Below the pieces are notes generated by a model that saw only the letters and a list, made by a program, of their open reading frames with translations, searched no databases and was not told the DNA's origin. Below, one piece after another: positions 12,541 through 40,286 of a stretch of DNA of 64,000 nucleotides (position 1 is its first letter; each line of letters starts with the position of its first letter). Both the position numbers and the translations under genes were made by a program. The DNA comes from Anaerolineae bacterium (lineage in GTDB: Bacteria; Chloroflexota; Anaerolineae; B4-G1; SLSP01), in NCBI GenBank assembly GCA_034432595.1, contig DAOUBT010000004.1, positions 18,892 to 82,891 on the forward strand. The letters are read 5' to 3'.

Positions 12541-12759
12541 GTAGAACCGTGGGAGTTTCTAAGTATGGTCCGGCTTTTAGCATCGCTCCCCCACCCTGTC
12601 TCAAAAAGCCCTGGTATTTTCCAGTGTCTTCTGCAGTGTGCGGGTTTATTCGACTAAACTCTGACCAACAAGAAACCGTTTTAGCCCAACACGGTGACAC
12701 CCCGATACCCATACCCGAAGCGCCCTGCCTGCGCTCCGTTTGTCTGTAAGGAGGTGGTC

Positions 12760-15096: not shown

Positions 15097-15198
15097 ATGG
15101 GGAACTGAACTGCGGCGAGAGTCGTCATAGTACAAATTCAGGGCCTTTTGTAACGTCAGGCACAAGATCAGAGCAAAGGGCTGGAAGCGGGAGGAGAT

Positions 15199-15756: not shown

Positions 15757-15849
15757 AGCGGTTCGGATTCCAGGTCAACGCGGACCGTATCCACACCAAA
15801 CGGCGCGGGGAAGGGTATCCCCGCGCCGTTGGTGCAGGATAGGGAAACG

Positions 15850-16083
15850 TCAGGCAGGCTTATGGTTGGCTTCGCTGGCTGCCACAGCAGCCAACAGGGC
15901 TTTGGCTAACCTGCGCGCCTGCTCCGGTGTGATAAAGATGTTACTCTCATCGCCGATGAAGAGTTTTTCGTCTTTAGGGCAGTCTTCAAGGATAGAGATG
16001 CAGATGTTATCTTCGTAGCCCCTGTCTTCTTCGCTGTAGTAGATCGTTACCCGCAAAGAACCATCCAACAACGTAATGGTCAT
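15850..16083 (-). CDS. Small hypothetical protein (77 aa) in a local lower-GC patch
   Basis: ATG with GGAGG 6 nt upstream (minus strand). Codon usage is AT-richer than the neighbours. No domain recognised. Confidence 0.35.
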   Translation of the reverse strand: MTITLLDGSLRVTIYYSEEDRGYEDNICISILEDCPKDEKLFIGDESNIFITPEQARRLAKALLAAVAASEANHKPA

Positions 16084-16231
16084 CGCTACCTCCTTTGGAT
16101 TCCATGTGTAGCGGCAGGAAAGCTCTGACCGCGGTGCTTTGATTGTAATCCGTTACCCAAAACGCGCAAGTCGGCAGTCTGAGGACAATTCTGAATAGAA
16201 TCGGCGTGGCTGACAAAGGGAAAGCGCGGCT

Positions 16232-16267
16232 GCAAAATTGGACTCCGCGGCTTTTCGCCTTATAATA
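16232..16267 (+). promoter_or_regulatory. Candidate sigma70-type promoter (TTGGAC, 16 nt spacer, TATAAT) for the AAA+ ATPase gene
   Basis: Perfect -10 TATAAT at 16261-16267, about 25 nt upstream of the ATG at 16293. A -35-like TTGGAC lies 16 nt upstream of the -10. Confidence 0.4.
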
Positions 16268-16292
16268 TTTTCATCCATCTCAGGGGGTGCGT

Positions 16293-17822
16293 ATGACGTT
16301 TGAAGAACAGTTAGACCTGTACTTGCGGGCGCGGGTCACGCTCATCGTGCTCAACACCATCGAGGAAGAGCGGGCTTTGCAGGCTATCAAGGCGGTGTGC
16401 GAGAAGCAGAAGCGGCCCTGCCTCACCTGGGATGTGGCGGATGGGTTTCAGCTCCTCAGTGGAAATGCCGCACCCCCCGCTTCCGTGCGCGATCCACTGG
16501 GCGCGCTGGAGCAGATTGAGAATGCCGCCGATCCGCCCCTGTTCGTGCTCAAGGACTTCCACGAGTTGTGGAACAATCCGCAGGTGAAACGCAAGTTGCG
16601 CTCGGCAGCGCAAAGGCTGCGCTACAGCAAGAAATCGCTGCTGGTGCTCACGCCAAACGGCAAAGTCCCGCCCGAATTGAGAGATGATGCGGTCATCACC
16701 GAGCTTCCCCCACCCTCCGCCGCCGAGCTGGATGCTGTGCTGGAGCAGCTTCTCAAAACGCCCGGCGTGCGCAACGACCTCACCCCGCTGGGACGCGAAA
16801 AGCTGGTGCAGGCCGCGCTGGGATTGACGCTGGCACAGGCGCAACGGGTCTTTGCGCGCTGCGTGGTGCGCAACGGAACCCTGGATGAGCGCGACATTGA
16901 TGAGGTGACGGAGGAGAAAAAGCAAATTATCCGCGAAAGCGAGGCGCTGGAATTTTACAGTGCCTCCGAGACGCCGGATGATGTGGGCGGCCTGGACGTA
17001 CTCAAACAGTGGTTACGTCTGCGCGAACGCGCCTTTACGCAGGAGGCACGCGCCTACGGGCTGCCCGCGCCCAAAGGTATCGCTCTCCTTGGCATTCCGG
17101 GCACCGGCAAGAGCCTCACGGCTAAAATGATTGGGGGGATGTGGCATCTGCCTCTGCTGCGCCTCGATGTCGGGGCGTTGTTCGGCAGTCTGGTGGGGGA
17201 ATCGGAGGAACGCGCGCGCCGCGCTTTGCGCCTGGCGGAGACGGTGGCCCCCTGTGTGGTTTGGATTGACGAGATGGAGAAAGCGCTTTCGCACGGCGGC
17301 CTGGATAGCGGCACGAGCACGCGCGTCTTTGGCACCATTCTCACCTGGATGCAGGAAAAGACCGCGCCGTGTTTTGTGGTGGCAACGGCGAACGACATCA
17401 GCAGCCTGCCACCCGAATTGTTGCGCAAAGGGCGCTTTGATGAGATTTTCTTCCTGGATTTGCCCACGCAAGAGGAACGCGAAGCTATCTTTGCTGTGCA
17501 TTTGCGCAAACGTAAACGCCTGCCACAGGATTTCGACCTCCACCTGCTGGCCCAACAGTCCGCGGGCTACGTGGGCGCCGAAATCGAACAGGCGATTATT
17601 GACGCGATGTACGTAGGGTTCGATGCCGGACGCGATATTACCACGCAAGACATTCTGGAAGCGCTCAAGCGACAGGTGCCGCTCTCCGTCTCACAGCGCG
17701 AACGCATCGAAGCCCTGCGCGCGTGGCTGATGGAGGGACGCGCGCGCTCGGCCTCCTTCCGCGAATCGCGCGAGGCGCAGCAGCGTTTTGTGCCCATTCA
17801 GCTTGAGGCTTCTGAGGTTTGA
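16293..17822 (+). CDS. Ycf46-like AAA+ ATPase (N-terminal domain plus C-terminal AAA module)
   Basis: Walker A GIPGTGKSLTAKMIGG. Walker B VVWIDEMEKAL. Sensor/Arg-finger region VVATANDISSLPPELLRKGRFDEIFFLDLP. Overall pattern matches cyanobacterial Ycf46-family ATPases. Confidence 0.85.
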   Translation: MTFEEQLDLYLRARVTLIVLNTIEEERALQAIKAVCEKQKRPCLTWDVADGFQLLSGNAAPPASVRDPLGALEQIENAADPPLFVLKDFHELWNNPQVKRKLRSAAQRLRYSKKSLLVLTPNGKVPPELRDDAVITELPPPSAAELDAVLEQLLKTPGVRNDLTPLGREKLVQAALGLTLAQAQRVFARCVVRNGTLDERDIDEVTEEKKQIIRESEALEFYSASETPDDVGGLDVLKQWLRLRERAFTQEARAYGLPAPKGIALLGIPGTGKSLTAKMIGGMWHLPLLRLDVGALFGSLVGESEERARRALRLAETVAPCVVWIDEMEKALSHGGLDSGTSTRVFGTILTWMQEKTAPCFVVATANDISSLPPELLRKGRFDEIFFLDLPTQEEREAIFAVHLRKRKRLPQDFDLHLLAQQSAGYVGAEIEQAIIDAMYVGFDAGRDITTQDILEALKRQVPLSVSQRERIEALRAWLMEGRARSASFRESREAQQRFVPIQLEASEV

Positions 17823-18041
17823 GCATGGGGGAACAAGCTCTGCTCTCCCTGCCTCGCCCCTCGCGGTCAGAGCGCCAAGAGAGGCACGGGCGTTCAAGCC
17901 ATGTTCCGATTGCATCCACCTGAGGCGCGCCGACGAGGTGCGGATGACGATGAGAGTGGCGTTGCACATGGGCGGGCGTTCCGATGGGCTATTCTTTAAC
18001 CCTGCGCGCTTTGCGGCTCAACCGGTGTAAGTGGAGCTACC

Positions 18042-20138
18042 ATGTCCTTGCTTGAAAGCATCCTTTTTGACACCCCCTCACGTTCGCTGCCATGGCGTCT
18101 GTTGCAGCGGCTCCTTGTGCGCTGGGTGGCGCTGAATCCAAAGCCGGTTGAGCTTGAGTTGCTGACGCGCGCCCTTCATCACCCTGATGCGGAGGTGCAA
18201 CGCATCGCCGAACGCGGCCTGCGTCAGCTCAAGCGAGATTACCTCAAAACGCTGGTCTGCCTGATTTGGGCGCGCACGCGCGATCCACGCCTGGAGACGC
18301 TGCTGAGCGAGTTGGGCTGGATAGCCGAAAGGCCACCGGAGGTGCGCGTCCTGACGTTGTTGCTGCAGGGAACGCCGGAGGAGGTGGGAGCGCGCATCGG
18401 CAGCACGATGGTCGAGCCTTTGCTGAAGGCCTGTGAGGATGCGGACCCGCGCCTGGCGGAACGGGCGCGCGCTGCGCTCCTGGCCCTGCGCCGTAAGGAT
18501 GCCCGCGCCGCTCTGTGGACCATCGTCCGCGAGAACGGCCATCCCCTGGCCCTGAAAGCGCTGGCGCAGAGCGGAGAACCGCCCCGAGACGAAAACGAGC
18601 GCGCGTTGTTCTGGTTCTTGCTGGGCCAATGGCAGGAGTATGAGGCGCTGGATTTCGACCGCCGGCGCTTGCGCGCAGTGTACGCCACCGCTTCGGCTGA
18701 GCTGCGCGCGCGCATCCGCGAGCAGTTGCGCGCCGCCGGACGCCCGGACTTCTTAACGGTGCTCACCGGCGGGGAGACGCGCCTGCAGGCCGAGGCGCTC
18801 TCGCCCGCCGAGACGCGCACCGTGCTGGAACTGCTGGTGGGGATGGGCGCATGGCGTGAGGTGTGGGACCTGGCGCTTAAGGTGCAGGTAGCCTGGGGAG
18901 CCTGGGCGGTGGAACGATTGGTCGCCGCCGGCTGGGAGCCTGAGGACGCCGAAGAGCAGGCCCTGTTGCGCACCTTGCACGGCCTGACGCAGGCCGGATT
19001 GCTGGCCGTGCCGGATGAAATCCGGCGGCGGCAGGGTTTGCTCGATTCGCACACGCTCGTCCGCGTGCCGGGACGGGTGAACGATGTGGTCTTCGCGCCA
19101 CGTTCACCCTGGATCGCTGTGGCGACCGGCACACGCCACGCGGTCATCTGGGATTACACGCAGGGCAAGCGCAAGATGTTGCTGGGGAATCATTTCGACC
19201 ACGCGATAGGGAGCGTGGCCTTCACGCCCGATGAGCGGGTGCTGCTGGGGGAACGCACCAATCAAAAAGAGCCGGTGGATTTGTTCCTGTACACCATGCC
19301 CCCGGATAACACCATGCGCCGCCTGGGATCCCATGAGATGATGATAGCGCTGGCCGTCCCCAATGACCGCTGGGCACTTTCGGCGGGACGCGAGGGTCTC
19401 CTGCGCCTGTGGGATTTGGAAGATGGTCGTCTGCTGCAACAGCATGAGACGCAAGGCGACTGGACTCGTCAATTGTGCGTGGTGGACGAAGCGCATGTGC
19501 TCTATCTGGGCCGGCTGATGCGCCTGATAAGCCTGCCGGATTTGAAAGAGCAGAAATGGCGCTTCACCGAGGGGCGCATCACCGCGGCAACGGTGTGCGG
19601 TAAGGATGTGCTGCTGGGACGATTCAGCGGCGAGGTGATCGCCCTCGATCTGAGCGATATGGGCCGTGCGCCGAAGCGCGTCATCAGCAGCTATGAGAAG
19701 GCGGTGGTGGGCCTGGCAACGCTCGCGCGCTATGGATTGGTGTTGAGCGTGGATGGCTCCGGCTTGTTGCGCGTCCTCGATACAGAGACGTATGAGGTGC
19801 GCCACGAACAGCGTATTGGGAAAGGCCGCGCCACCTCGTTACACCTTTCGCCGGATGAGGCTTTCATGGTCCTGGGATTGAGCGAAACGGCCTTCGCGCT
19901 GTTGGATTTGCGCTTCCTGGCCCTGCCGTGGCTCTTTGCCCAACCGTTAGCCCGGCTCGGTCCCGACGAGACGGCGCGCATCCGCTGGCTGGCCGGGCAG
20001 ACCCATCTGCTCCCCGATGTGCAGCGAGCCTTGCAATTTGCGGCGCATATCCTACACTATCGCTGGCGTTACGAAATCGAGCTGGAGCAGGCGCCGGAGC
20101 TGGTCGCAGGAGAGTTCGATATCGAGATTGAGGGGTAA
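18042..20138 (+). CDS. HEAT-repeat plus WD40/beta-propeller repeat protein
   Basis: N-terminal HEAT-like repeats (HHPDAEVQRIAERGL; ACEDADPRLAERARAAL). C-terminal WD-like blades (AVIWDY; LLRLWDLEDGRLL; LLRVLDTETYEV). Ribosome-binding site GGAG. Confidence 0.7.
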   Translation: MSLLESILFDTPSRSLPWRLLQRLLVRWVALNPKPVELELLTRALHHPDAEVQRIAERGLRQLKRDYLKTLVCLIWARTRDPRLETLLSELGWIAERPPEVRVLTLLLQGTPEEVGARIGSTMVEPLLKACEDADPRLAERARAALLALRRKDARAALWTIVRENGHPLALKALAQSGEPPRDENERALFWFLLGQWQEYEALDFDRRRLRAVYATASAELRARIREQLRAAGRPDFLTVLTGGETRLQAEALSPAETRTVLELLVGMGAWREVWDLALKVQVAWGAWAVERLVAAGWEPEDAEEQALLRTLHGLTQAGLLAVPDEIRRRQGLLDSHTLVRVPGRVNDVVFAPRSPWIAVATGTRHAVIWDYTQGKRKMLLGNHFDHAIGSVAFTPDERVLLGERTNQKEPVDLFLYTMPPDNTMRRLGSHEMMIALAVPNDRWALSAGREGLLRLWDLEDGRLLQQHETQGDWTRQLCVVDEAHVLYLGRLMRLISLPDLKEQKWRFTEGRITAATVCGKDVLLGRFSGEVIALDLSDMGRAPKRVISSYEKAVVGLATLARYGLVLSVDGSGLLRVLDTETYEVRHEQRIGKGRATSLHLSPDEAFMVLGLSETAFALLDLRFLALPWLFAQPLARLGPDETARIRWLAGQTHLLPDVQRALQFAAHILHYRWRYEIELEQAPELVAGEFDIEIEG

Positions 20139-20164
20139 CTCCAGAGGAAACCGGGAGGGTTATC

Positions 20165-20662
20165 ATGCCATTCTGGTCACGCCGGAAAAAAGAGGGGGCG
20201 CCCGCGGAGGCGCGTATGTTGCAGCTCGAAGCGGAGTTACAGGCCTTGCGCCTGACGTTGGAAGAGCGTGAGGCGGAACTGCGCAGGTTACGCGCTCAGT
20301 GGGAACAGGAACGCGCGCGCAGCACGGCACAAGTGGAAGCGCAGGTGCAGGCGCAGATGGCGGCGCTGATGGAAGCCGCGGCCCCGCCTGTGGCGCAGGT
20401 GCTATTGCAGGGGTCGCTCATCGAAGCGGGGCAAGAGGTGCGGGCGCGGGACGTGTGGCTGGTGGTGCAGCGTCTGGTGCGCGTCCTGGAGGCGCACGGC
20501 CTGGAGGTGAGCACGCCCATCGGCACAGAGGTGGCCTTCGATCCGGACCGGCATCAGCCCCTGAGCGGGAGTTGCCCTGCAGGGACGCGCGCGCGCGTGC
20601 GGCTGCCGGGCCTGAGTTACCGCGGACGGCTCATCCACAAGGCGGGCGTCGTTCAGGAGTGA
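20165..20662 (+). CDS. grpE: GrpE-like nucleotide exchange factor (short, 165 aa)
   Basis: GGAGGG ribosome-binding site. N-terminal coiled coil (LQLEAELQALRLTLEEREAELRRLRAQ). C-terminal beta-domain motifs FDPDRHQPLS and YRGRLIHKAGVVQE. Confidence 0.7.
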   Translation: MPFWSRRKKEGAPAEARMLQLEAELQALRLTLEEREAELRRLRAQWEQERARSTAQVEAQVQAQMAALMEAAAPPVAQVLLQGSLIEAGQEVRARDVWLVVQRLVRVLEAHGLEVSTPIGTEVAFDPDRHQPLSGSCPAGTRARVRLPGLSYRGRLIHKAGVVQE

Positions 20663-20716
20663 AGGGGCGTGGCAACACCCTTTAAGGTCAAAACGCTCAG
20701 GCAGGGATAAAAGGCC

Positions 20717-22303
20717 ATGGCAGGACGTTTGGGGATTGATTTTGGCACGTCGAATACGGTGGTCGCGCAGTGGGATGCCCTGGCGAAGGAGGGAAAGCCG
20801 CTGCTCATCCCGGAATACAGCCATTTCTACATGCAGGGCGGAGAATCCATCGCCGTCGTGCCCTCGCTCATCCACTATACAACGGACGGGCGGCGCTGGA
20901 TTGGCGAGCAGGTGCGACAGCAGCAATTGCTGCAAGCGCCGGGCACATTCCGCTGGATGAAGCGCTACATCACGCAGCGCAGCCCCTATCGCGTGCGCGT
21001 GGGCGAGCGCGACATCACCCCCTTCGAGGCAGCGCAGGATTTCCTGACAGCGGTGTTGCTCTTCGCTGGTCAGGAGGTGGCGTTGGAAGATGAGGAAGTG
21101 GCCTTCAGCGTGCCGGTGGAGGCCTTTGAGGACTACGAGGATTGGCTGACGGGCGTGGCACAGCAGGCCGGGATGCCGCGCTTCCGCCTGATTGACGAGC
21201 CATCAGCGGCGGCGCTGGGCTACGGCGCCCCCATCCGCCCCGGCGACGTGTACCTCATTTTCGATTTTGGCGGTGGGACGGTGCACGCGGCGATGGTGCT
21301 CATCGAAGAGGCGGAACATGCAGATAGCGGCCGCCGTTGCCGCGTGTTGGGCAAGGCCGGCGCGGATTTGGGCGGTGCGGTGGTGGATCAGTGGCTCTTC
21401 ATGGATATTCTGCGCCAACAGGGCCGCTCCGAAGGGGATGAGGTGGTGCGGCGCGTGAGCAATCTGCTGCTGGTGGAATGCGAGCGCGCCAAGATTCAGC
21501 TTTCCACACAGGAGCGGGCGTCCATCAGCGTGGTGGATCCGCAAAGTGGGGCGGCTTTAGGGGCGGATTACAGCCGCGCGCAATTCGAGAGCCTGCTGGA
21601 AGCGAACGGCGCCTTCACCACCATCGAGCGGACGGTGCGCCGCGCGCTGCACGAAGCCTACGAGCGCGGTTACGACGAGGATCGCATCAAGGCGGTGTTG
21701 ATGGTGGGCGGCAGCAGTCAAATTCCGGCCATCCAGAGCCTTTTGCAGCGCAGTTTCGGACGCGAGCGGGTCATGCTCAACCGCCCCTTAGATGCTATCG
21801 CCCGTGGCGCAGCCGCTTTCGTTGCCGGCACGGATTTCTACGACCACATTCAGCACAGCTACGCCATCCGCTACCTGAACCGCGAGAAAAACGAGCACGA
21901 TTATTGGACGATTGTCGAACGCGGCACACCCTATCCGGCAGCGCAGGTGGCGCGCCTGACGGTCAAGGCGTCGTATGATCAGCAGACGCATCTGGGTGTG
22001 GCGATTTTCGAAGTGAGCGAGACACGTCAAAGCGCCGCGGGCGCGTTCGAGCTGGTGTTCGATCCGAGCGGCGCGGCGCGGTTGGCCCCCGTCAGTGCCG
22101 AGGCCACGTATCGCCGCCAATATTTCTGGATGAACGAAAAGCAGCCCACCTTCCTGGTGGCCGATCCGCCCGCGCAACAAGGGGAAAAATGTTTTGAAAT
22201 CGTGTTCAGCATAGATGCCAACAAGCGTTTGCTGCTCACCGCGCGGGATTTGCGCACAGGTAAGCTGGCCTACAAGGATTATCCGGTGGTGAAACTGACA
22301 TAA
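20717..22303 (+). CDS. Hsp70-family protein with a complete actin-like ATPase domain but a truncated substrate-binding region (528 aa)
   Basis: IDFGTSNTVVA (phosphate-1), DEPSAAALGYG (connect-1), IFDFGGGTV (phosphate-2), VLMVGGSSQIPAIQ (adenosine motif). Only about 140 aa follow the nucleotide-binding domain. Confidence 0.85.
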   Translation: MAGRLGIDFGTSNTVVAQWDALAKEGKPLLIPEYSHFYMQGGESIAVVPSLIHYTTDGRRWIGEQVRQQQLLQAPGTFRWMKRYITQRSPYRVRVGERDITPFEAAQDFLTAVLLFAGQEVALEDEEVAFSVPVEAFEDYEDWLTGVAQQAGMPRFRLIDEPSAAALGYGAPIRPGDVYLIFDFGGGTVHAAMVLIEEAEHADSGRRCRVLGKAGADLGGAVVDQWLFMDILRQQGRSEGDEVVRRVSNLLLVECERAKIQLSTQERASISVVDPQSGAALGADYSRAQFESLLEANGAFTTIERTVRRALHEAYERGYDEDRIKAVLMVGGSSQIPAIQSLLQRSFGRERVMLNRPLDAIARGAAAFVAGTDFYDHIQHSYAIRYLNREKNEHDYWTIVERGTPYPAAQVARLTVKASYDQQTHLGVAIFEVSETRQSAAGAFELVFDPSGAARLAPVSAEATYRRQYFWMNEKQPTFLVADPPAQQGEKCFEIVFSIDANKRLLLTARDLRTGKLAYKDYPVVKLT

Positions 22304-22496
22304 CAAGAACCCACGGTCAGGGTTCGCCAGGGCCTGGACTTGCAAGGCCCATCGGGGAAGGCAAGGACTTGCGCGGCTGGATGCCAGCCTGCTACTCCAA
22401 GCAGGCAGCTTAAAGCTGTACCTGAGCGGCAACAGGCCCGGAGCCAGTCGGGGTTAAGACAGCGCCCCGGCCCCTTAATCAGCACAAGGAGGTAAC

Positions 22497-22880
22497 ATGT
22501 CCCATTTTACTCGCGTTAGAACGCGCCTGAAGGAAAAGGCCTACATCATAGCTGCGCTGCAACAGATGGGATACCAGGTCCACGATCAACGGGGAAGCGT
22601 GCGCGGCTTTGGAAACAAACAGGTCGAGGTCGAGTTTAGCGTTCGCCCCCGTCCGATGAGCTACGCCATCGGTTTCCGCAAGACGGGAGAAGGGTACGAC
22701 ATCATCGCGGACTGGTGGGGCGTGCGTGGGGTCAGGCAAGCCGAGTTCACGCGCAAACTGACGCAACTTTACGCCTATCAAGCCGCAAAGCAAAACCTCG
22801 AAGCGCAGGGCTTCACGTTAGCGGAAGAGCAGGTAGACGCGGAGGGGCGCATCCATCTTCTCCTGCGCCGCATGGTTTGA
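22497..22880 (+). CDS. DUF1257 (Ycf35-like) protein
   Basis: GGAGG ribosome-binding site. N-terminal MSHFTRVRTRL... and overall length and pattern typical of the Ycf35/DUF1257 family. Confidence 0.75.
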   Translation: MSHFTRVRTRLKEKAYIIAALQQMGYQVHDQRGSVRGFGNKQVEVEFSVRPRPMSYAIGFRKTGEGYDIIADWWGVRGVRQAEFTRKLTQLYAYQAAKQNLEAQGFTLAEEQVDAEGRIHLLLRRMV

Positions 22881-22891
22881 GGAGGGATGCC

Positions 22892-23095
22892 ATGAAGTAT
22901 CAAGAGATTGAGGTCATCATCACCCCCAAAGGGGAAGTGGAAATTCGTGTAGCCGGGGTCAAGGGCATGGGCTGTGTGGAGCTGACGCGCGCCCTCGAAG
23001 AAGCCCTCGGCGAAGTGCTCGCGCGCGAGTTGCAACCCGCGGCTTACGAGAGCGAGCAGGAGGAGCAGAATCAGGCATGGCTGAAGACGAGCTAA
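22892..23095 (+). CDS. DUF2997-family small protein (67 aa)
   Basis: GGAGGG ribosome-binding site. MKYQEIEVIITPKGEVEIRVAGVKGMGCVELTRALEEALG matches the DUF2997 signature (IE-x-xIxPDG-V...GxxGxxC...LExxLG). A 12-nt gap separates it from the preceding DUF1257 gene. Confidence 0.7.
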   Translation: MKYQEIEVIITPKGEVEIRVAGVKGMGCVELTRALEEALGEVLARELQPAAYESEQEEQNQAWLKTS

Positions 23096-23661
23096 CGCTC
23101 CATGCTTTCTGGCCGCGCAGCGCCGCCAACGGGCCGGGTCTGCGCGCCGTGATCTGGGTGCAGGGCTGCACACTGCATTGCCCCGGCTGCTACAATCCCC
23201 AGACGCACGATCCGCAGGGCGGGACGCGCATCACCGTGGCGGAGCTGTTGGCGCAGCTCCTGCGCCTGCCGGACATCGAGGGGGTGACCATCAGCGGCGG
23301 CGAGCCGTTGCAGCAGATGCACCCGCTCCGGCAGCTTTTGCAGGGCGTGCGCAGCGCCTCGTCGCTATCCGTCATCCTCTTTACCGGCTACACCTGGGAG
23401 GAAATTCAGACGCTGCCGGAGCACAGCGCGCTGCTGGCCTGTGTGGACGTGCTCATCAGTGGACGGTACGTGGCCGCGCAGCGCCTGGCGCGCGACTTGC
23501 GCGGCTCGGCCAACAAAGAGGTGCGCTTTCTCACGTCGCGCTACACCCCCGCGGATTTGAGCGCCGTCCCGGAAGCCGAGGTTATCATCACGCCCGATGG
23601 GGATGTGGTGTTAAGCGGCATTCATCCTTTGCGTTGGGCGGCCAGTCCGAGGGAAAGCTGA
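23077..23661 (+). CDS. Radical-SAM activase of the NrdG/PflA-like 4Fe-4S single-cluster family
   Basis: CTLHCPGC (Cx3Cx2C) followed by YN. SAM motif ISGGEPL. 194 aa. Overlaps the DUF2997 stop by 19 nt. Confidence 0.75.
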   Translation: MAEDELTLHAFWPRSAANGPGLRAVIWVQGCTLHCPGCYNPQTHDPQGGTRITVAELLAQLLRLPDIEGVTISGGEPLQQMHPLRQLLQGVRSASSLSVILFTGYTWEEIQTLPEHSALLACVDVLISGRYVAAQRLARDLRGSANKEVRFLTSRYTPADLSAVPEAEVIITPDGDVVLSGIHPLRWAASPRES

Positions 23662-23767
23662 GGGGGAAATGGGATGGGCAACAGCCATGCCGCCGTCCAG
23701 CCGATTGTAATGCTCTCGCCAGCCAGGCAGATTTGATGAGCTATTCGCTTCTTGCGCTCCACGCCCC

Positions 23768-24292
23768 TTACCAGTTGACCGGTACGCGGCGCAGACGGTA
23801 TCGCTTGTCATAGAACTCCACATAGTGGTAGGTTCGCCCGAACTCGTACAGGCGGCGCGTGACATGGACATCCTGCTCACAGTAACGGAACAGCTCCTCG
23901 ATGCGTCCGGCGCGCCACCAGCGCACCGCCTGCAAGCCATCCGCGCTTTTCTTTTCGCCCAGCGTCGCCGCGGCCAGAGCGTCCAGGCTCACGCGGAAGC
24001 CTAATTGCCGCGCAATCACCGCCAGCATATCCACCGTGCGCAAGGCGTACAGGTTCACTGGCGTGTAAGCCTTGAGAACAAGGTAGTCAAAATCCAGCAG
24101 ATTGAAACCCACCACCACATCCGCCTGCTGTAATTCGGCAATGAGCGCCTCCACATTGGCCTCGGTGAAGCGCCCCCAACGATCGGTCCGATCGTCATAC
24201 GTGACCGCGACGGAAAGCTTGAGCTGCTCCGGAAAGCGGCCCCCTACTTCGTCAAAGGTGTTTTGCGTTTCCAGGTCGAAAAAGACGGGCAT
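23768..24292 (-). CDS. DEDD-family 3'-5' exonuclease domain protein (174 aa)
   Basis: Exo I motif VFFDLETQN. Exo III-like YCEQDVHVT. The start overlaps the stop of the upstream cyclase gene. Confidence 0.65.
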   Translation of the reverse strand: MPVFFDLETQNTFDEVGGRFPEQLKLSVAVTYDDRTDRWGRFTEANVEALIAELQQADVVVGFNLLDFDYLVLKAYTPVNLYALRTVDMLAVIARQLGFRVSLDALAAATLGEKKSADGLQAVRWWRAGRIEELFRYCEQDVHVTRRLYEFGRTYHYVEFYDKRYRLRRVPVNW

Positions 24293-24296
24293 GGTT

Positions 24297-25826
24297 CTAC
24301 TCCACCAGACTTTCCACTTCGTAAACCGGTTCCGGATGCTGCTGCCCCTTAATCCAGACCGGTGGCAATTCACGAACACGCACTTTTTCCCGCACCAAAT
24401 CGTAAGTGCGCTGACAGATAAGCACTTTCCACGCCGCAGCCAACTCTTGCAGCGCGTGGGCCTTGTTAACCGTGACCCCGATCGCCGTAAAGTTAACCAG
24501 GTTAGACGTGCCGAGGTTGCCCACCACCGCTTCACCCGTGCTGATGCCGATCCCCATCGGCAGGCGGTACTGGATAGGCAACTCGGTATGCAAGGACGCA
24601 ATGCGCTGCAAAATAGTCATAGCAGCGCGCACCGCACGCAGCGCATAATCCGCTTGCGGCAGGGGCGCATTGAAGAAAGCCATCATCCCATCCCCCAAAA
24701 ACTTATCGAGCGTGCCTTCTTGCTCCAAAATCACCGATGCCGCGCATCCCAAATGCTGATTGAGCACCCCCATCAAGACTTCGGGCGTGGTCTGCGAGCT
24801 GAAAGCCGTGAAGCCGCGAATATCGGCGAAGAGCACGCTGATGCTCTGGCGCTGTCCGCCGGGTTGCACGTCCTGCGGGTGGCGCAGGATGCGCTCCACC
24901 ACCTGCGGGGCCACGTAATGTTCAAACAGGGCGCGCAACTCGCGCTTTTCCCGTTCCCGGCGCTCCTCCACTTCGTTGAGCAGCCGCACATTCTCGATAG
25001 CAATGGCCGCGTAGTCGCCCAACATCTTCAGAAGCAAACGATCGTGCGTGGAAAAGGGCTGACGGTTGGCTTTGTTGCTCAGGGTCAGGGCGCCGAGCAC
25101 CTGTCCGCGCGATTGCAGGGGAACGCTGACCATCAAGTCAGTATCGTGCAGCATCAGAGCACGGCTTTCCAGGGAGCGATACTCATTGTTGGCATAGAGG
25201 CGGTGAGTCGCCACGTGAGGCTCGCCCGTCTGCGGATCGAGGAGCACAAGCAACCCTTCCAACGCGCCGGTAATGTAAAGCGCGGCATCCACAATGCGCT
25301 CCATAAGCTTCTCGCGCTCGTACAACATCGTCACAGACTTGCTCACGTGATACAGAGTATCCAGTTCCTTCAAGCGCTGTGCCAGGTCTTGATTGGTGAC
25401 CTTGAGCTGTTGCATCAACTGATCGCGTTCACGCTCCAGACGTGCCTGATACAACACGCGCTCCATGGCGCTAAACAACTCATCCGCGGTGAAAGGCTTG
25501 GGCACGTAATCGCGCACCCCAAGCCGAAATACCTCCACCGCCACGGATTCAGAGCCATACGAGGTGATGAGGATAACAGGAGCAAAAAATTCATGCTCTT
25601 TGAGCTTGCGCAGGACTTCGATGCCGTTCAGGCGCGGCATTTCGTAATCCAGGAGAATCAAATCAGGTTGCAGTTCCAGAGCCTTCTCAACACCATCCTG
25701 ACCATCCACCGCCACACTGACGCGATACCCCTGCGGTTCGAGAAGCGAATCCTTGATGAACTCGCGAATGTTGGGATTGTCATCCACAACCAGCACATGG
25801 ACCGGCCCTGCAAGATTGTTAGCCAT
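24297..25826 (-). CDS. Response-regulator receiver, GAF, class III adenylate/guanylate cyclase
   Basis: REC domain: VLVVDDNPNI...LILLDYEMPRLNG. Cyclase homology domain: ISVLFADIRGFTAFS...MGIGISTGEAVVGNLG. Confidence 0.85.
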   Translation of the reverse strand: MANNLAGPVHVLVVDDNPNIREFIKDSLLEPQGYRVSVAVDGQDGVEKALELQPDLILLDYEMPRLNGIEVLRKLKEHEFFAPVILITSYGSESVAVEVFRLGVRDYVPKPFTADELFSAMERVLYQARLERERDQLMQQLKVTNQDLAQRLKELDTLYHVSKSVTMLYEREKLMERIVDAALYITGALEGLLVLLDPQTGEPHVATHRLYANNEYRSLESRALMLHDTDLMVSVPLQSRGQVLGALTLSNKANRQPFSTHDRLLLKMLGDYAAIAIENVRLLNEVEERREREKRELRALFEHYVAPQVVERILRHPQDVQPGGQRQSISVLFADIRGFTAFSSQTTPEVLMGVLNQHLGCAASVILEQEGTLDKFLGDGMMAFFNAPLPQADYALRAVRAAMTILQRIASLHTELPIQYRLPMGIGISTGEAVVGNLGTSNLVNFTAIGVTVNKAHALQELAAAWKVLICQRTYDLVREKVRVRELPPVWIKGQQHPEPVYEVESLVE

Positions 25827-25914
25827 AAGACCCCAATAACTCCCAGAATGATGGGATTATTATACCGATTTTAAGCGAAGAGACAAAACTATCAAAAGAG
25901 ACAAGGTCGAACGG

Positions 25915-26098
25915 GTATCCCAGGCTCTGCCTGGGGAGCTGGCCAGCCAAACACAAGTTGCGTCCCCCCAGGCTTTGCCTGGGGACTCGCCAGCCAGAGG
26001 CTGGCAGTACGCCGTGTACCCCCAGGCTCTGCCTGGGGACAGCCAAAGGCTGGCGGTACGCCGTGTACCCCCAGGCTCTGCCTGGGGACGGCGCCACA
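25915..26098. repeat. Array of hairpin-forming tandem repeats (units CCCAGGCTCTGCCTGGGG and GCCAGCCAGAGGCTGGC), inverted relative to the 30146-30748 array
   Basis: The repeats are visible directly in the sequence. Their reverse complement aligns with the units of the second array (CCCCAGGCAAAGCCTGGGGGTGACGGTGTACCGCCAGCCTCTGGCTGGCG). Confidence 0.8.
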
Positions 26099-26171
26099 AA
26101 AAAGATACCTACCCCCAACAACAAAAGGCGCGGCTCACGCCGCGCCTTTGCGCACGTTTCCCTACTTCGCG

Positions 26172-26624
26172 TCAGCCCTCAATCTCGTGGATAACGTCTT
26201 CAGGCGATGCGTCGGTGTAGATTACCTTCATCAACCCCGGCAGGTAGCGGTCCATGGTGCGCACGTTGATGTAGATGAGATTCCGCAACATGGTGAAAGT
26301 AGCTTCGCCACCTTCAACGTCCAGCGCCGTCTTGTAGCGCACCTCGCCATCCGAGTAGTCAAACTCGAAGTTGCCGATAATCATGCCGTAGTTGGCGCGC
26401 GTGATAAACTCGACCACGGCTCCGCGCTTCTCGACCGGTGCCTTAATTGGCGCAAGCGAGTAGAAGACAAATTGCTCCATATCCTCACGCGCCTGTGCAA
26501 AGCAGGTCCACTCCCCGTTTTTGCCCGCAAAACCGGTGCGAATGACCGGACGCCCCTCAATCTCCTGATAGGGCCAGTCATCCTGCTTGAAGAAGCTGAT
26601 AAACCCATCGTAAATCCGTCCCAT
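26172..26624 (-). CDS. Small cytoplasmic protein, possibly YbjN-like (putative sensory-transduction regulator / chaperone-like fold)
   Basis: 150 aa. AAAGGATGG ribosome-binding site. The YbjN-like call rests on weak pattern similarity only. Confidence 0.45.
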   Translation of the reverse strand: MGRIYDGFISFFKQDDWPYQEIEGRPVIRTGFAGKNGEWTCFAQAREDMEQFVFYSLAPIKAPVEKRGAVVEFITRANYGMIIGNFEFDYSDGEVRYKTALDVEGGEATFTMLRNLIYINVRTMDRYLPGLMKVIYTDASPEDVIHEIEG

Positions 26625-26659
26625 GGTGATTCCATCCTTTCTACGACTACAAAGTGAAA

Positions 26660-29600
26660 TTACGGCAGAGGAAGTGTGAACAAGAAACGACTGCCCTGCC
26701 CCAGTCGGCTCTCAACCCAAATCGTCCCGTGATGATGCTGCATAATCTCGCGGCAAATGGCGAGGCCCAAACCACTGCCACCGCGCTGCCCCCCACCCTG
26801 CTGAAAACGTTGAAACAAACGCGCCATTTCACCCTCACGGATACCGGGACCGCTATCCGTAACACTGACCAGCACCACGGGATAGGGCGCGGGCAGACCA
26901 GTCTCGGCGCCAGGTTGACGGACCCCATACGGCGCCACCTCTGTTCCCGGTGGGAGCACCTCCGCTGCGATGACGATATCCCCATGATCGGTGAACTTGA
27001 GCGCATTGCCCAACAGATTTGTAAGTACCTGTATCATGCGATCCGCATCCCCCACCAACACCGGTAAGTCGGGCGCGATTTGCGTTCGCACCGGCACGCG
27101 CTTTTCTAAAATTAACGAGCGCAGCGCCGCTAATGTGGACGTAATCACATCCTGCAGCGTGAAGGGATCGGATTTCCACTCCAGCCGCCCGGCTTCCATC
27201 TTGGCCAGATCGAGCACGTCATTCACCAGACGGGTGAGGCGCGCGCCCTCCTGCGCTATGATGGACAGGTTGTCCGTGATACGCGCCGCGGCTTTCTGGA
27301 CTTCTGCATCATCCGCGGGTAGTTTGGGCAAGATGTGGCGCGTGAACTGCCGCCCGATAAGCTGACTGAAGCCCAGGATGGAGGTCATGGGAGTGCGCAG
27401 CTCGTGCGACACGGTGGACACAAAATCGTCCTTCATGCGCGCCATCTCCACATCCGCCGTGATGTCGTGCATCACGGTCACGACGCTTCCGCTCCAGGCA
27501 TCCTGCCCGCCGAAAGCCACCGAAGTGCTGCGGTAGATGCGTGGCGAATGGGTGTATTCCACACTCGCGCTGGTATCCGGCGTTTGTTGTGCCAGCGTCA
27601 ACGCCTCCAGCAAAGGCGGATAGGGTAACACCTCCTGTAAAGGCAACCCAATCAGGCGCGCTGCTTCATGTCCTACCATAGCACAAAAAGCGGGATTGAC
27701 AAGTTCGATGCGCCCCGCCGCATCGGTTACCACCAGGCCATCCGTGATATGGCGCAGAATGGCATCCAGCCGCGCGTGTTGTGCGCTCACAGTCTGATAG
27801 GCACGCTCCAGCTCCTGCGTGCGCGCCTGCACCTGTGCCTCCAGGGAGCGACTGTAGCGCTCCAGCTCTTGCGCCTGCTCCCTCACCCGATCCAACAATT
27901 GCAAGCGGCGTACCACCGCGCCTAACTGATGCCCCACCGTCTCGGCCAGCGCGATTTCCTCATCGCTCCAGAAGCGCGGCTGCGCATCGCCTACCAGCAT
28001 CCCGCCAATGGTTTCCCCTTGATTTTTGATGGGGATGGTGAGGGAAGAGCGGAATCCCAAACGCATCAAGAATGGACCGGTCCGGGTACGCAGTCCGTCC
28101 AGCGGCGTTGTCGTCCAATCTTGTACCGCCATCGGCACGCGCAGATCCAGTTGGGAAGCATACTCACGCGCCTCGTCAAAAACGCGCACAAAATCGGGCA
28201 GGCCACGCACGGCATACTGAGCGCCAATCCAGATGCCCCCCAGGGTGGTTTGCAGCGTTCCCATCACCAGATCCAGCACCTGCTCCAACAACCCGGCCAG
28301 GTCGTTTGCTACCGTCGCCGCCGCGATGATGGCATTCTGGGTCTCCAGGTAAGCGGCGCGACGCTGCGTCTGCTGCAGCAGGCGTGCATTCTCGATGGCA
28401 ATCGCGGCCTGAGCTGCCAGCATCTCCAGCAACACAATGTCATCCGCGCTGTAGGCGTTGGGCTGATAGCACTGGGCCGAAAGCACGCCGAAAATGCGTT
28501 GTTCCAGGCGCATGGGGACGAAGAGCAGCGAACGCACCGGCGTCGCGCCTACCTGAATCGCCTGTGCGCCGATAGCGTCCAGGCTCTGCTCCCCTATCAG
28601 CAAGGCCTGACCGGTGGTAACGACGTGCCAGCTCAGGCCCTGCCCGCGTGGTGCCCGCACGCCGGTGTACACCTGACCACGGTCCACGGCATAAACAACC
28701 TCTATGGCCTCGCCATCCTCCGTCACCACGCCCAGCAAGAAAGCATCGCAGGGCATCAACTGCTGTGCGGCGCGATGGATGGCCGCATACAGCGAGGGCA
28801 AATCGCGCACGGCGCTGATAACTTCCTGTCCCACCGCGTGGAGCACCGCGCGCCGCTGTCCGGCTTCCAGCGCGGTCTGATACAGCCGCGCGTTCTCCAA
28901 CGCAACGGCCATCTGCGGTGCCAACAGATGGAGGCGTTCAGTATAAGCCTCCTCATACAGGCCCGGCGCCCAACGCACATCCAGCACGCCCACGACGCGC
29001 GCGCCCAGCAGCAGGGGTAACACACAGCGCACGGCGGCGCGGTCCTCCTCCGGCGTGTGCCAGGGACGGCCCTCGCGCAACGCAGCGCGCACCACTTCGT
29101 CGTGGCCCTCATCAACCTGAAGATAAAGAAAAACCTCTTGTGCCTGCACCAGCCCACGCACGGCCTGCGTGATGGTCTGCAACAGCGGTTCCAGTTCGAG
29201 TTCCGCCGCCACCAGGAGATTGAAGCGCTGGATGGTTTCCAGTTCCTCGCGGCGATGCAATTCCTCGCGGTAGAGACGGTTGTTCTCCAGGGTCAGCGCC
29301 ACCTGCTCGGCGAAGAGCGCCGCCACCTGCACGTGATCAGGCGTGAGGGTGCGCGGGGTAAGCTGCTCCAAACAGAGGACGCCCCATACTTCATCGCGCA
29401 CCAGCAGGGGAACACCCATCCACGCCACCGGTTGTTCGGCGGAAGCCAGAGGGCACATGGAAGGCACGCGTTCCAGAAGCACAGGGCGACGCGCTTCCAG
29501 GACCTGCGCCAGATGTTGCTGTGGCAATTCGGCATCGGCGCAGGGCGCGTTAGCTCCTTCCGCGTTGCGCCAGCTCAAGCAATGCCAGTTCCCGGCGCGA

Positions 29601-30145
29601 CGCTCGAACAGGGCCGCCCAGCTATAAGGGACAAGGCGCTGCAAGTGTTCCAGCAGACGCGGCCACAGCGCAGCTTCATCGCGAACCACAGCGATATCGG
29701 CGCTCACGGAACACAGAATATCCGCCAGACGCCGCTGCCATTGTTCAGCCTGCAGCTCCTGTAACTGTGCCATAAGCGGCGCGAGCAGCGCGCACAGAAC
29801 GCGCGCATCGTCGGCCACGTCCGCGGAGAGGGTGTGTGCAACGTCCGGGTCCAGCGCCAGCCAGGCCAGGATGCGCCCGTCGCTGGTTATGGGCAGGGTC
29901 AGCGGTGTACCGGCGGGGGTTAGATCGGGGTTGATGTGGTACACGACATGAGCAGGGCGTTCCGTATGCCAGGCGTGCAAGACCAGCGTTACTCTGGCGA
30001 CGGGGCGCCAGGTACACAGATGTTGGGCCACCGCTTCCCCCAGGGTCAAAAGCGAGGTGGACATCAGGGCCGCGCGGAAGGCCGCCCAAACGCGCGGGCT
30101 GGGCGGATCAGCGGTTAGAGCGGCGGTTTCTGAGATGATGTCCAT
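26660..30145 (-). CDS. Multi-GAF/PAS sensor histidine kinase (1161 aa)
   Basis: At least 4 GAF-like segments. PAS domain (HITDGLVVTDAAGRIELVNPAF). H-box VSHELRTPMTSILGF. HATPase GSGLGLAICREIMQHHHGTIWVESRLGQGSRFLFTLPLP. Confidence 0.85.
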   Translation of the reverse strand: MDIISETAALTADPPSPRVWAAFRAALMSTSLLTLGEAVAQHLCTWRPVARVTLVLHAWHTERPAHVVYHINPDLTPAGTPLTLPITSDGRILAWLALDPDVAHTLSADVADDARVLCALLAPLMAQLQELQAEQWQRRLADILCSVSADIAVVRDEAALWPRLLEHLQRLVPYSWAALFERRAGNWHCLSWRNAEGANAPCADAELPQQHLAQVLEARRPVLLERVPSMCPLASAEQPVAWMGVPLLVRDEVWGVLCLEQLTPRTLTPDHVQVAALFAEQVALTLENNRLYREELHRREELETIQRFNLLVAAELELEPLLQTITQAVRGLVQAQEVFLYLQVDEGHDEVVRAALREGRPWHTPEEDRAAVRCVLPLLLGARVVGVLDVRWAPGLYEEAYTERLHLLAPQMAVALENARLYQTALEAGQRRAVLHAVGQEVISAVRDLPSLYAAIHRAAQQLMPCDAFLLGVVTEDGEAIEVVYAVDRGQVYTGVRAPRGQGLSWHVVTTGQALLIGEQSLDAIGAQAIQVGATPVRSLLFVPMRLEQRIFGVLSAQCYQPNAYSADDIVLLEMLAAQAAIAIENARLLQQTQRRAAYLETQNAIIAAATVANDLAGLLEQVLDLVMGTLQTTLGGIWIGAQYAVRGLPDFVRVFDEAREYASQLDLRVPMAVQDWTTTPLDGLRTRTGPFLMRLGFRSSLTIPIKNQGETIGGMLVGDAQPRFWSDEEIALAETVGHQLGAVVRRLQLLDRVREQAQELERYSRSLEAQVQARTQELERAYQTVSAQHARLDAILRHITDGLVVTDAAGRIELVNPAFCAMVGHEAARLIGLPLQEVLPYPPLLEALTLAQQTPDTSASVEYTHSPRIYRSTSVAFGGQDAWSGSVVTVMHDITADVEMARMKDDFVSTVSHELRTPMTSILGFSQLIGRQFTRHILPKLPADDAEVQKAAARITDNLSIIAQEGARLTRLVNDVLDLAKMEAGRLEWKSDPFTLQDVITSTLAALRSLILEKRVPVRTQIAPDLPVLVGDADRMIQVLTNLLGNALKFTDHGDIVIAAEVLPPGTEVAPYGVRQPGAETGLPAPYPVVLVSVTDSGPGIREGEMARLFQRFQQGGGQRGGSGLGLAICREIMQHHHGTIWVESRLGQGSRFLFTLPLP

Positions 30146-30748
30146 AGGTTGGTTCCAGTGAACTTTCTACCGTAAAACTTTTGTAGCGCCAGCCTCCGGC
30201 TGGCGAGTTGCCCAGACGGAGCCTGGGGGTACCGGCGTACCGCCAGCCTCCGGCTGGCGAACGTCCCAGGCGAAGCCTGGGGATACAAGGGCAAATTCCC
30301 CGGGCGGAGCCTGGGGGTGACGGTGTACCGCCAGCCTCTGGCTGGCGAACGTCCCAGGTGGAGCCGGGGGGTACAAGGGCAAATTCCCCAGGCAAAGCCT
30401 GGGGGTGACGGTGTACCGCCAGCCTCTGGCTGGCGAATGTCCCCGGCAGAGCCTGGGGGTACAAGGGCAAATTCCCCAGGCAAAGCCTGGGGATACACAA
30501 GCAGAGCCTGGGGGTACAAGGGCAAATTCCCCAGGCAAAGCCTGGGGGTGACGGTGTACCGCCAGCCTCCGGTTGGCGAGTTGCCCAGGCGGAGCCTGGG
30601 GGTACAAGGGCAAATTCCCCAGGCAAAGCCTGGGGATACGCAGGCGAAGCCTGGGGGTACAAGGGCAAATTCCCCAGGCAAAGCCTGGGGATACGCAGAC
30701 GGAGCCTGGGGGTACGCAGGCAAAGCCTGGGGATACACAGGACAAGGT
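30146..30748. repeat. About 600 bp array of complex tandem repeats (units of roughly 47 and 90 bp) built from two perfect 8-bp-stem hairpins: CGCCAGCCTCCGGCTGGCG and CCCCAGGCAAAGCCTGGGG
   Basis: Fills the entire intergenic gap between two minus-strand genes. The ORFs in this interval (PQALPGEFALVPPG...) are repeat artefacts. Confidence 0.85.
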
Positions 30749-32593: not shown

Positions 32594-32707
32594 CGCTCAA
32601 CCTCCTGTTATGCGCTCGCTCCAAGCGCATCCCGTTTTTCAAAAAACAAGTAAAGATCGTTAAGGGCATAACCATCATCCAAAAGGCGTTCGCCGGATTT
32701 GCCACAG

Positions 32708-40262: not shown

Positions 40263-40286
40263 AAGTTATCCCTTACAGGCTACCGA

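Follow-up and report, generated by a model that had tools for sequence, protein, structure and literature searches.

We analyzed a 64,000-nucleotide stretch of DNA from an Anaerolineae bacterium of the phylum Chloroflexota (assembly GCA_034432595.1, contig DAOUBT010000004.1, positions 18,892 to 82,891 of the forward strand), hereafter the window, with a focus on a cluster of seven genes that ends in a gene for a radical S-adenosylmethionine (SAM) enzyme, referred to below as the activase. All seven genes are on the + strand, in the order AAA+ ATPase, WD40/HEAT protein, GrpE-like protein, Hsp70-like protein, DUF1257, DUF2997 and radical-SAM enzyme. The features of the cluster are as follows.

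16239..16266, + strand: promoter-like site (TGGACT, 16-nucleotide spacer, TATAAT; 10 of 12 positions), a weak candidate for the operon start from a consensus scan alone
16287..17822, + strand: AAA+ ATPase of the classic CDC48/PAN/FtsH clade (Pfam AAA, E 3e-27, and AAA_lid_3)
18042..20138, + strand: WD40 beta-propeller protein with a helical-repeat N-terminal half (WD40-type Pfam matches)
20165..20662, + strand: GrpE-like nucleotide-exchange factor (Pfam GrpE, E 1.2e-06, 28.8 bits against a cut-off of 25.8)
20717..22303, + strand: Hsp70-like protein (Pfam HSP70, E 5.2e-34, profile positions 2-370 of 599)
22497..22880, + strand: DUF1257 (Ycf35 family) protein, 127 amino acids (Pfam, E 1.5e-22, 80.2 bits against a cut-off of 22.2)
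22892..23095, + strand: DUF2997 protein, 67 amino acids (Pfam, E 1.8e-16, 60.2 bits against a cut-off of 24.1)
22955..22975, + strand: DUF2997 loop codons G22-V-K-G25-M-G-C28, a candidate target or redox site
23077..23095, + strand: overlap of the activase start and the DUF2997 end, 19 nucleotides
23077..23661, + strand: radical-SAM enzyme of the NrdG/PFL-AE type, 194 amino acids, without an auxiliary-cluster domain (Pfam Fer4_12, E 7.3e-35; Radical_SAM, E 1.6e-07)
23167..23190, + strand: codons of C31-T-L-H-C35-P-G-C38, the [4Fe-4S]/SAM cluster motif (unchanged in all 25 aligned members)
23566..23628, + strand: codons of the C-terminal hairpin of the activase, residues 164-184, a conserved, family-specific extension

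A preliminary description of this DNA had recognized the last three genes, for DUF1257, DUF2997 and the 194-residue radical-SAM enzyme, and their Pfam matches, coordinates and motifs and the single Cys of DUF2997 were all confirmed. The activase start does overlap the DUF2997 stop, as had been stated, with the ATG at 23077 and the TAA at 23093-23095. However, the three genes do not form a self-standing unit as had been supposed, but are part of an AAA+/WD40/GrpE/Hsp70 cluster with four more genes upstream (16287-22303). Along the cluster the intergenic gaps are 220, 26, 54, 193 and 11 nucleotides, followed by the 19-nucleotide overlap, and a strong Shine-Dalgarno sequence, AAGGAGG, is located 5' of the DUF1257 start. 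The same genes were called on three independent metagenome contigs carrying the identical protein, and no Rfam family matched within 15000-25000. The AAA+ ATPase, for which gene callers place the start at 16293 (509 amino acids), has a family-specific N-domain of ~230 amino acids; its best NCBIfam models were CDC48, FtsH and PAN, all well under their cut-offs, its PDB matches were p97/Cdc48, and it matched phrog_8638 of the PHROGs database over its full length (E 3.8e-155). The Hsp70-like protein consists of a nucleotide-binding domain and a short beta-rich C-terminal domain without a lid, and scored almost equally on DnaK and HscA models (119 versus 114 bits, both well under the cut-offs).

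The activase is a small radical-SAM enzyme of the type of NrdG, the activase of class III ribonucleotide reductase, and of the pyruvate formate-lyase (PFL) activating enzyme (PFL-AE). It has a CX3CX2C motif near the N-terminus (C31-x3-C35-x2-C38-Y-N), a [DN]GPGxR motif and a SAM-binding GGE motif (S73-G-G-E-P77), which are the marks of this lineage. In an alignment of 25 members from several phyla, with a mean identity of ~60% to the window activase, N18-G-P-G21, R23, C31, C35, C38 and S73-G-G-E-P77 were invariant and N40 was nearly so. The family profile found PFL-AE (PDB 3C8F/3CB8) as the sole solved relative (E 7e-18, residues 7-152), and N18-G-P-G21/R23 and N40 align with D-G-P-G-I-R and C-H-N of that enzyme. 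What we take to be the activase signature (PROSITE PS01087 and the PFL-AE structure), namely [DN]GPGxR and an Asn two residues past the third Cys, is present with one departure, Trp27 in place of Phe. The top NCBIfam model was NrdG TIGR02491, whose score was under its cut-off (117.3 bits versus 126.1), and therefore the enzyme is NrdG-like and not NrdG proper. Further NrdG models gave 72.2 bits (NF008335, cut-off 199), 53.6 bits (TIGR02495, cut-off 131.15) and 43.5 bits (TIGR02826, cut-off 151.7), and the models for PFL-AE and other activases also scored lower than TIGR02491. Models for QueE (7-carboxy-7-deazaguanine synthase), which represents a small-molecule branch with Fer4_12 in common, gave 22.6-24.2 bits against cut-offs of 260-300 and did not identify the activase as QueE. 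Judged by its sequence, the activase belongs to the glycyl-radical-activase lineage. The characterized enzymes of this lineage remove a hydrogen from the C-alpha of a glycine in a protein substrate, and to our knowledge they are known solely as partners of large glycyl-radical enzymes.

No cognate glycyl-radical enzyme was found to be encoded nearby, either in the 64-kb window or in 80 related loci of up to 20 kb, which bears out the earlier observation that an anaerobic ribonucleotide reductase or PFL-like enzyme is missing from the neighborhood. A six-frame scan of the window for the RVxG[FYW] fingerprint gave two matches, RVKGY and RVQGF, and no glycyl-radical enzyme; RVQGF sits in a 147-codon open reading frame (ORF), and RVKGY at 15076 was rejected as a chance match because the protein that has it in its C-terminal tail is a membrane protease of the PrsW type, with an N-domain like that of Vps62. 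Of 27 window ORFs compared with Pfam, four were without a match and the others fell into other families, including sensor kinases, cyclases, a giant surface protein, HerA, a CCA-adding-type enzyme and phosphoglucomutase, none of them a glycyl-radical enzyme. The 994 ORFs of at least 300 amino acids from the 80 related loci contained four chance-level matches to the fingerprint, none at the position of a glycyl-radical domain.

Relatives of the activase were collected by a pattern scan with one genome per species and confirmed by tblastn, and at least 597 species-level genomes encode one. The flanks of the best 80 of these loci, many of which are cut by contig ends, were searched by sequence and by profile. 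These 80 loci are from Chloroflexota, Planctomycetota, Verrucomicrobiota, Actinomycetota (Streptomyces, Actinoplanes, Actinomadura), Myxococcota, Eremiobacterota, Hydrogenedentota, Vulcanimicrobiota, Melainabacteria and others, while the closest relatives of the window activase are mostly from Chloroflexota, with one Gemmataceae genome. Near the activase we found DUF1257 at 58 of the 80 loci, DUF2997 at 57-58, the AAA+ ATPase at 49, the Hsp70-like protein at 48, the WD40 protein at 47-49 and the GrpE-like protein at 16-17; the last of these must be divergent, since neither sequence nor profile search detected it more often. Both DUF1257 and DUF2997 were within 10 kb of the activase at 58 of the 80 loci, in multiple phyla, and chance co-occurrence is negligible because DUF2997 is rare (1061 clusters in a library of 1.84 billion proteins). 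This result is therefore the opposite of the failure to co-occur that the preliminary description had named as a ground for abandoning its proposal of a partnership between the activase and the DUF pair. Independent gene calls with precomputed Pfam annotation confirmed the co-occurrence, and two further contigs contained the same gene set in other orders. Synteny with the DUF, AAA and Hsp70 genes is conserved in more than eight phyla, and the module extended by WD40, GrpE and Hsp70 is found in most Chloroflexota, Planctomycetota and Actinomycetota copies.

The coupling between DUF2997 and the activase is conserved as well. In 48 of the 58 loci the DUF2997 stop is located 32-96 nucleotides (median ~53) ahead of the activase NGPG codon, and since ~17 conserved residues precede NGPG, the two genes must abut or overlap in these loci. 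This adjacency is kept when DUF1257 sits behind the AAA gene, as in three Streptomyces loci (L013, L015 and L074) and two others (L058 and L059). In a neighbor-joining tree of the activases rooted on PFL-AE, the plasmid copies are at the base and one derived clade of 12 loci stands apart, and nearly all members outside this clade, the window activase included, are in a DUF/AAA/Hsp70/WD40 context. The plasmid versions are reduced or rearranged: a Paenibacillus polymyxa megaplasmid has a minimal cassette of AAA, DUF1257, DUF2997 and activase genes, a Paenarthrobacter plasmid encodes AAA, a 141-residue protein, DUF2997, a 294-residue protein and the activase, and a Bacillus thuringiensis plasmid has a scrambled version of the cassette. 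On one metagenome contig (L095:7092-9633) the cluster, with the activase first and DUF1257-DUF2997 last, directly follows genes for a TrwB-like coupling protein and a Replic_Relax relaxase, and therefore appears to be carried on a conjugative element.

The two small proteins are likely to be close partners of each other. Among the 150 DUF2997 clusters listed from the above library, nearly all are standalone proteins of 60-75 amino acids. According to the consensus from 58 loci and a low-confidence AlphaFold2 model (five homologs, predicted local distance difference test score, pLDDT, 59), DUF2997 would begin with a beta-hairpin (5-21), after which come the G22-x-x-G25-x-x-C28 loop, a helix with the Cys as its first residue (28-46) and a conserved tail, R-E-M/L-x-P-E-A; C28, the single Cys of the window protein, is within GMGCVEL. 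In DUF1257, an alignment of 59 homologs showed an N-terminal MSHF, which is invariant in the main family, though its His3 is lost in the Paenibacillus copy, and in addition the motifs DIGF, ADWWG, QRYAYH, QGF and LRR; identity between the window protein and those of cyanobacteria is 45-50%. The DUF1257 structure model is predicted to have the fold of an interaction module and no enzyme fold, and this model, together with a natural DUF1257-DUF2997 fusion protein (P0310), suggests that the two act together. Four DUF2997 proteins (P0302, P0339, P0378 and P0389) have Ser/Ala/Arg-rich N-terminal extensions of 30-70 residues that resemble plastid transit peptides, with the DUF2997 motifs kept; the appearance of these extensions suggests nuclear-encoded algal copies alongside plastid-encoded ycf35.

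The activase has a structural element in common with DUF2997. Its NrdG-like core ends near residue 150 (the TIGR02491 match stops at 149), and the ~40 residues beyond it contain a hairpin extension with the consensus vP-x-a-E-[VI]-x-[IL]-x-p-x-G-x-[VI]-x-h-[ST]-G181-[IV]-[DN]-P, where h is a hydrophobic residue. The extension was present in all 86 activases examined, with G181 in 86, G175 in 85 and E168 in 84 of them, and it is kept even where the DUF pair is absent. It resembles the first DUF2997 hairpin, as can be seen from the window activase, EAEVIITPDGDVVLSGI, and the window DUF2997, EIEVIITPKGEVEIRVAGV. When the extension was aligned with the DUF2997 profile by hhalign, the probability was 88.8% (P 2.5e-06 for a single comparison), with G181 aligned to G22, and a search of 81 activases with the DUF2997 profile by hmmsearch gave 54 domain hits, most of them at the hairpin and most individually insignificant. 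Since the element is short, the likeness may be due to convergence.

These results led us to the tentative view, which we consider quite possible, that the activase is a protein-directed, hydrogen-abstracting enzyme within a module of AAA+, DUF and chaperone-like proteins. We infer that its substrate is a protein, that this protein is DUF2997, and that the reaction yields either a stable radical or a covalent change arising from one; DUF2997 is the favored target, with less assurance than the general proposal of a protein-directed enzyme, and it is the coupling of the genes, and only that, which points to DUF2997 or DUF1257 as the substrate. In the proposed mechanism, the activase would have been recruited as a fixed subunit of a conserved protein-remodeling module and would be made from one message with DUF2997 by coupled translation. 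It might dock on a DUF1257/DUF2997 unit by its C-terminal beta-hairpin, which would mimic the first DUF2997 hairpin. The reduced [4Fe-4S] cluster would then cleave SAM to a 5'-deoxyadenosyl radical, which would take a hydrogen atom from one of the proteins in the complex, most likely at the Gly-rich loop of DUF2997 (G22/G25, beside Cys28), and the AAA+ and Hsp70 ATPases could load, expose or recycle the modified partner. The nearest precedent for DUF2997 as a small radical acceptor would be GrcA/YfiD, a small stand-alone protein with a canonical RVSGY sequence that is given a radical by the activase and replaces the damaged C-terminus of PFL. However, DUF2997 is half the size of GrcA, has V-R-G-V-K-G-x-x-C rather than RVSGY, and has no PFL-like partner. 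PFL-AE itself shares the substrate-side N-terminal motif and the SAM motifs with the window activase, but it has 245 amino acids and a fuller barrel and acts on the RVSGY loop of PFL or GrcA, and no such loop is present in the cluster proteins.

Several observations weigh against this proposal, and most of them concern the choice of DUF2997 as the target. The main weakness is that in neither DUF2997 nor DUF1257 did we find a residue that is conserved only together with the activase. In all contexts examined, DUF2997 keeps G25, C28 and the P-E-aromatic tail whether or not an activase is present, including in the phage, cyanophage and alga-like copies, and G22 is replaced by Asp in the activase-linked Paenibacillus DUF2997. 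The conservation of the G25-x-x-C28 loop is therefore not explained by the activase, and the Cys loop, to which the preliminary description had pointed as a link to the activase, loses its value in this respect, as it is equally conserved in phages L338C and P-SSM2, in which the activase is absent. DUF2997 has no RVxG[FYW] fingerprint, its consensus over the 58 loci being V-R-G-V-K-G; the sequence IRVAGV in the window DUF2997, which we had likened to the fingerprint, was rejected as peculiar to that copy. Furthermore, the structure model of DUF2997 is of low confidence, as its pLDDT indicates, and many of the hosts are aerobes (Streptomyces, Actinoplanes, Gemmataceae), which is awkward for a long-lived glycyl radical. 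In our opinion, a transient radical that resolves into a covalent change is therefore likelier than a stored glycyl radical.

Other points of this kind come from gene content. The protein encoded most constantly with DUF1257/DUF2997 is the AAA+ ATPase rather than the activase, and AAA+, DUF1257 and DUF2997 are the core of the module. Rhizobium phage L338C encodes AAA, gp051, DUF1257 and DUF2997 without an activase, and Prochlorococcus phage P-SSM2 (L093:3302-4451, PSSM2_178-181) encodes, again without an activase, DUF2997 and DUF1257 in overlapping frames followed by two DUF6561 proteins. The ssl1263-fed7-ycf35 cluster of Synechocystis (PMC4284462, PMC8875361) likewise has the DUF pair and no activase. 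On the side of the activase, copies on Polaromonas and Calothrix plasmids are found without the DUF pair, with AAA ATPases, a PIN protein, Hsp70 and a large TPR protein, and a derived clade of 12 loci, mostly of Kofleriaceae and other Myxococcota, has lost the DUF/AAA context. Three loci of this clade were scanned against Pfam with gene calls guided by the GC content of third codon positions (GC3), and the other nine were assigned to it by shared neighboring ORFs. Homologs of TldD/PmbA are encoded upstream of the activase in the scanned loci, two each in L057:6257-11498 and L070:6296-10546 and one in L046:6376-10555, where it was the sole ORF scanned, and in L057 a gene for a CN-hydrolase of the nitrilase superfamily is located just downstream of the activase. 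This clade looks like a second uncharacterized peptide- or protein-directed system, and the peptidase homologs next to its activases also point to polypeptide substrates. A cyanobacterial cluster without the activase (L085) was considered as a "minus" control and rejected as probably decaying, since its AAA gene is split (L085:4436-5969) and its sister locus in Prochloron (L084:7065-7981) has only fragments, an AAA N-terminal one and a 49-residue Hsp70 C-terminal one, upstream of intact DUF1257/DUF2997.

An alternative in which the substrate need not be a protein is that the cluster is an NTPase-centered conflict system, of the anti-phage or addiction type, whose radical-SAM effector makes a toxic or signaling small molecule or drains SAM. 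The WD40 or TPR protein would then sense, AAA+ and Hsp70 would act as the switch, and DUF1257/DUF2997 would be adaptors of the AAA+ ATPase. Such a role would suit the neighbors of the plasmid relatives (integrases, insertion sequence elements, HNH and PIN proteins, and the relaxase and coupling protein), the modular partners, with WD40 swapped for TPR and Hsp70 present or absent, and the occurrence of the AAA/DUF1257/DUF2997 triad in phages, all three proteins of which have families in PHROGs. The AAA+ domain also resembles the IetA/IteA anti-phage ATPases, although the match to the PADLOC IetA models (70.8 bits) is via the generic AAA domain alone, and PADLOC-DB 2.0 gave no match for DUF1257, DUF2997, the window activase, the WD40 protein or the GrpE-like protein, the plasmid activases matching pVip weakly. 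The nearest published concept, in which a radical-SAM effector was likewise proposed by comparative genomics, is that of the FtsH-type ternary conflict systems (Kaur et al. 2020, PMC7159879), predicted systems enriched in filamentous or multicellular bacteria that combine a classic AAA+ ATPase, beta-propellers and a radical-SAM enzyme whose presumed substrate is a small peptide encoded with it. These are, however, defined by a MoxR ATPase and a vWA protein, both of which are absent here, and in that study a linkage to Hsp70/GrpE is given only for a separate GTPase-centered class, while its text has neither DUF1257 nor DUF2997. Furthermore, conservation is very high for a conflict system (~60% identity among activases of different phyla, and 45-50% between the DUF1257 of the window and those of cyanobacteria), the activase is far nearer to protein-directed activases than to QueE or viperin, and its tight translational coupling to DUF2997 is unexpected of a free effector. 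For these reasons we consider an effector role unlikely, though it deserves to be kept in mind. We regard as less likely still, and on the whole improbable, that DUF2997 and DUF1257 are an electron relay, cluster carrier or repair factor for a [4Fe-4S] protein, which would be the activase here and Fed7 in cyanobacteria, with the dedicated Hsp70/GrpE pair in the role that HscA has for IscU. In Synechocystis, ssl1263 (DUF2997), ycf35 (DUF1257) and the [4Fe-4S] ferredoxin gene fed7 form one conserved SigD-dependent gene group (PMC4284462, PMC8875361), and Fed7 binds a DnaJ-like protein (PMC4284462). This group thus has the same two small proteins, a [4Fe-4S] protein and a link to Hsp70 through the DnaJ-like partner, but its Fe-S partner is a ferredoxin and not a radical-SAM enzyme. 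C28 is universal in DUF2997, and the near-equal DnaK and HscA scores of the Hsp70-like protein would also suit such a role. In contrast, one Cys per 67-residue protein makes a poor cluster site, the Paenibacillus DUF1257 is without His3, the phage triads have no nearby gene for an Fe-S partner, and the DUF1257 model showed no resemblance to the folds of known scaffolds or carriers.

The hairpin extension gives rise to a different possibility, that the activase radicalizes its own Gly181, within one chain or between two, and that DUF2997 is a competitor, regulator or radical acceptor. The conservation of G181 in all of the activases examined includes clades and plasmids without DUF2997, the residue after it is hydrophobic or aromatic, the motifs RINGW (Polaromonas) and VAGF (Paenarthrobacter) recall RVxG[FYW], and the NrdG models have no such extension. 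A plain structural constraint would equally give an invariant Gly at the end of a hairpin, however, and we know of no precedent for a self-activating member of the NrdG/PFL-AE lineage; we find self-activation very doubtful. Hardly credible is the simplest explanation, that the enzyme is an ordinary NrdG, serving an anaerobic ribonucleotide reductase whose gene lies in another part of the genome, and that its position is incidental. NrdG is the best-scoring model, the Joint Genome Institute (JGI) labels many family members [quoted passage not shown], and NrdG has in common with the window enzyme its small size, its single cluster and the xGPGxR, CX3CX2C-x-N and GGE motifs. The window enzyme, however, scores under the NrdG cut-off, has about 40 extra conserved C-terminal residues, has no NrdD nearby and is encoded in an AAA+/Hsp70 operon setting whose synteny extends over more than eight phyla, with no glycyl-radical enzyme found in the 80 loci. 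Moreover, the activase is found in Streptomyces, whose ribonucleotide reductases are of classes I and II.

Returning to a protein-directed activase, a more specific version of it may be considered, which strikes us as a long shot. The cluster could be a minimal protein-radical device in which a C-alpha radical would be formed on a short hairpin-Gly element, either DUF2997 or the Gly181 tail, beside a conserved Cys, and in which the AAA+ unfoldase and Hsp70/GrpE would load, reset or destroy the carrier. If so, glycyl-radical chemistry would here be seen for the first time beyond the large barrel enzymes. The device would also provide the first biochemical handle on the AAA+/DUF1257/DUF2997 triad, which is also carried by phages, by cyanobacteria and, as ycf35 and probably ycf46, by algal plastids. 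Red-algal plastids keep or lose ycf35 together with ycf46, an AAA gene (PMC5940233). In the literature that we searched there was no description of the system, and no report naming DUF1257 or DUF2997 connects either of them with radical-SAM enzymes, AAA+ ATPases or Hsp70. The gene system itself is thus undescribed, while the enzyme is of a known kind and belongs to an orphan branch; identifying the substrate of this branch would establish a new way in which radical-SAM chemistry is applied to proteins. DUF1257 (Ycf35), DUF2997 and probably the Ycf46-type ATPases have been "hypothetical" for decades in cyanobacteria, plastids and cyanophages, and the system offers an experimental entry point to them. 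Since the hosts include cultured organisms (Thermanaerothrix daxensis, Bellilinea caldifistulae, Streptomyces scabichelini and the Paenibacillus polymyxa strain with the megaplasmid), the question is directly testable.

Some further observations were made on the components of the cluster. The C-terminal tails of three of its proteins are conserved, WLxEGRAQSASF..EAE.QFVP in the AAA+ ATPase (17700-17822), GEFDIEIEG in the WD40 protein (20100-20138) and DYPVVKLT in the Hsp70-like protein (22280-22303), that of the WD40 protein across loci including the cyanobacterial one; to go by these short motifs, they may serve for docking between components of the cluster. The acidic beta-strand pattern F-D-I-E-I-E of the WD40 tail recalls the E-I-E-V-I-I hairpins of DUF2997 and the activase. 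The DUF pair of P-SSM2 is placed between genes for purine synthesis and a carbamoyltransferase and a DNA polymerase gene, and appears to be an unrecognized auxiliary gene pair of cyanophages. Full-length relatives of the AAA+ ATPase, ~35% identical to it, are encoded by Mycobacterium phage Corndog (gp96, L091:3420-5120) and in 33 other mycobacteriophage records, the phages being of cluster-O type, apparently without adjoining DUF1257/DUF2997.

The remainder of the window has other features. The PrsW-type protein mentioned above (12694-15096) has 800 amino acids, with a weak Vps62-like match at the N-terminus, a long middle part and an intramembrane protease domain at the C-terminus, and PrsW genes were located 6-9 kb from the cluster in seven Anaerolineae loci, which may be plain synteny. 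Convergent with the end of the activase gene, a DEDD/RNase H-fold 3'-5' exonuclease is encoded on the - strand (23768-24292; 174 amino acids according to gene callers), and it is not conserved beside the cluster in other loci. The regions 24297-43820 and 61106-63628 are dense in GAF/PAS sensor histidine kinases (1161, 840, 1686, 577 and 840 amino acids); a receiver domain is present in one of the two GAF-adenylate/guanylate cyclases that these regions also encode, and all of these genes are within ~40 kb. At 35-8704, a giant ORF (2889 amino acids), with a beta-helix region and many Ig-like, CARDB and FixG_C-type repeats, probably encodes a cell-surface protein.

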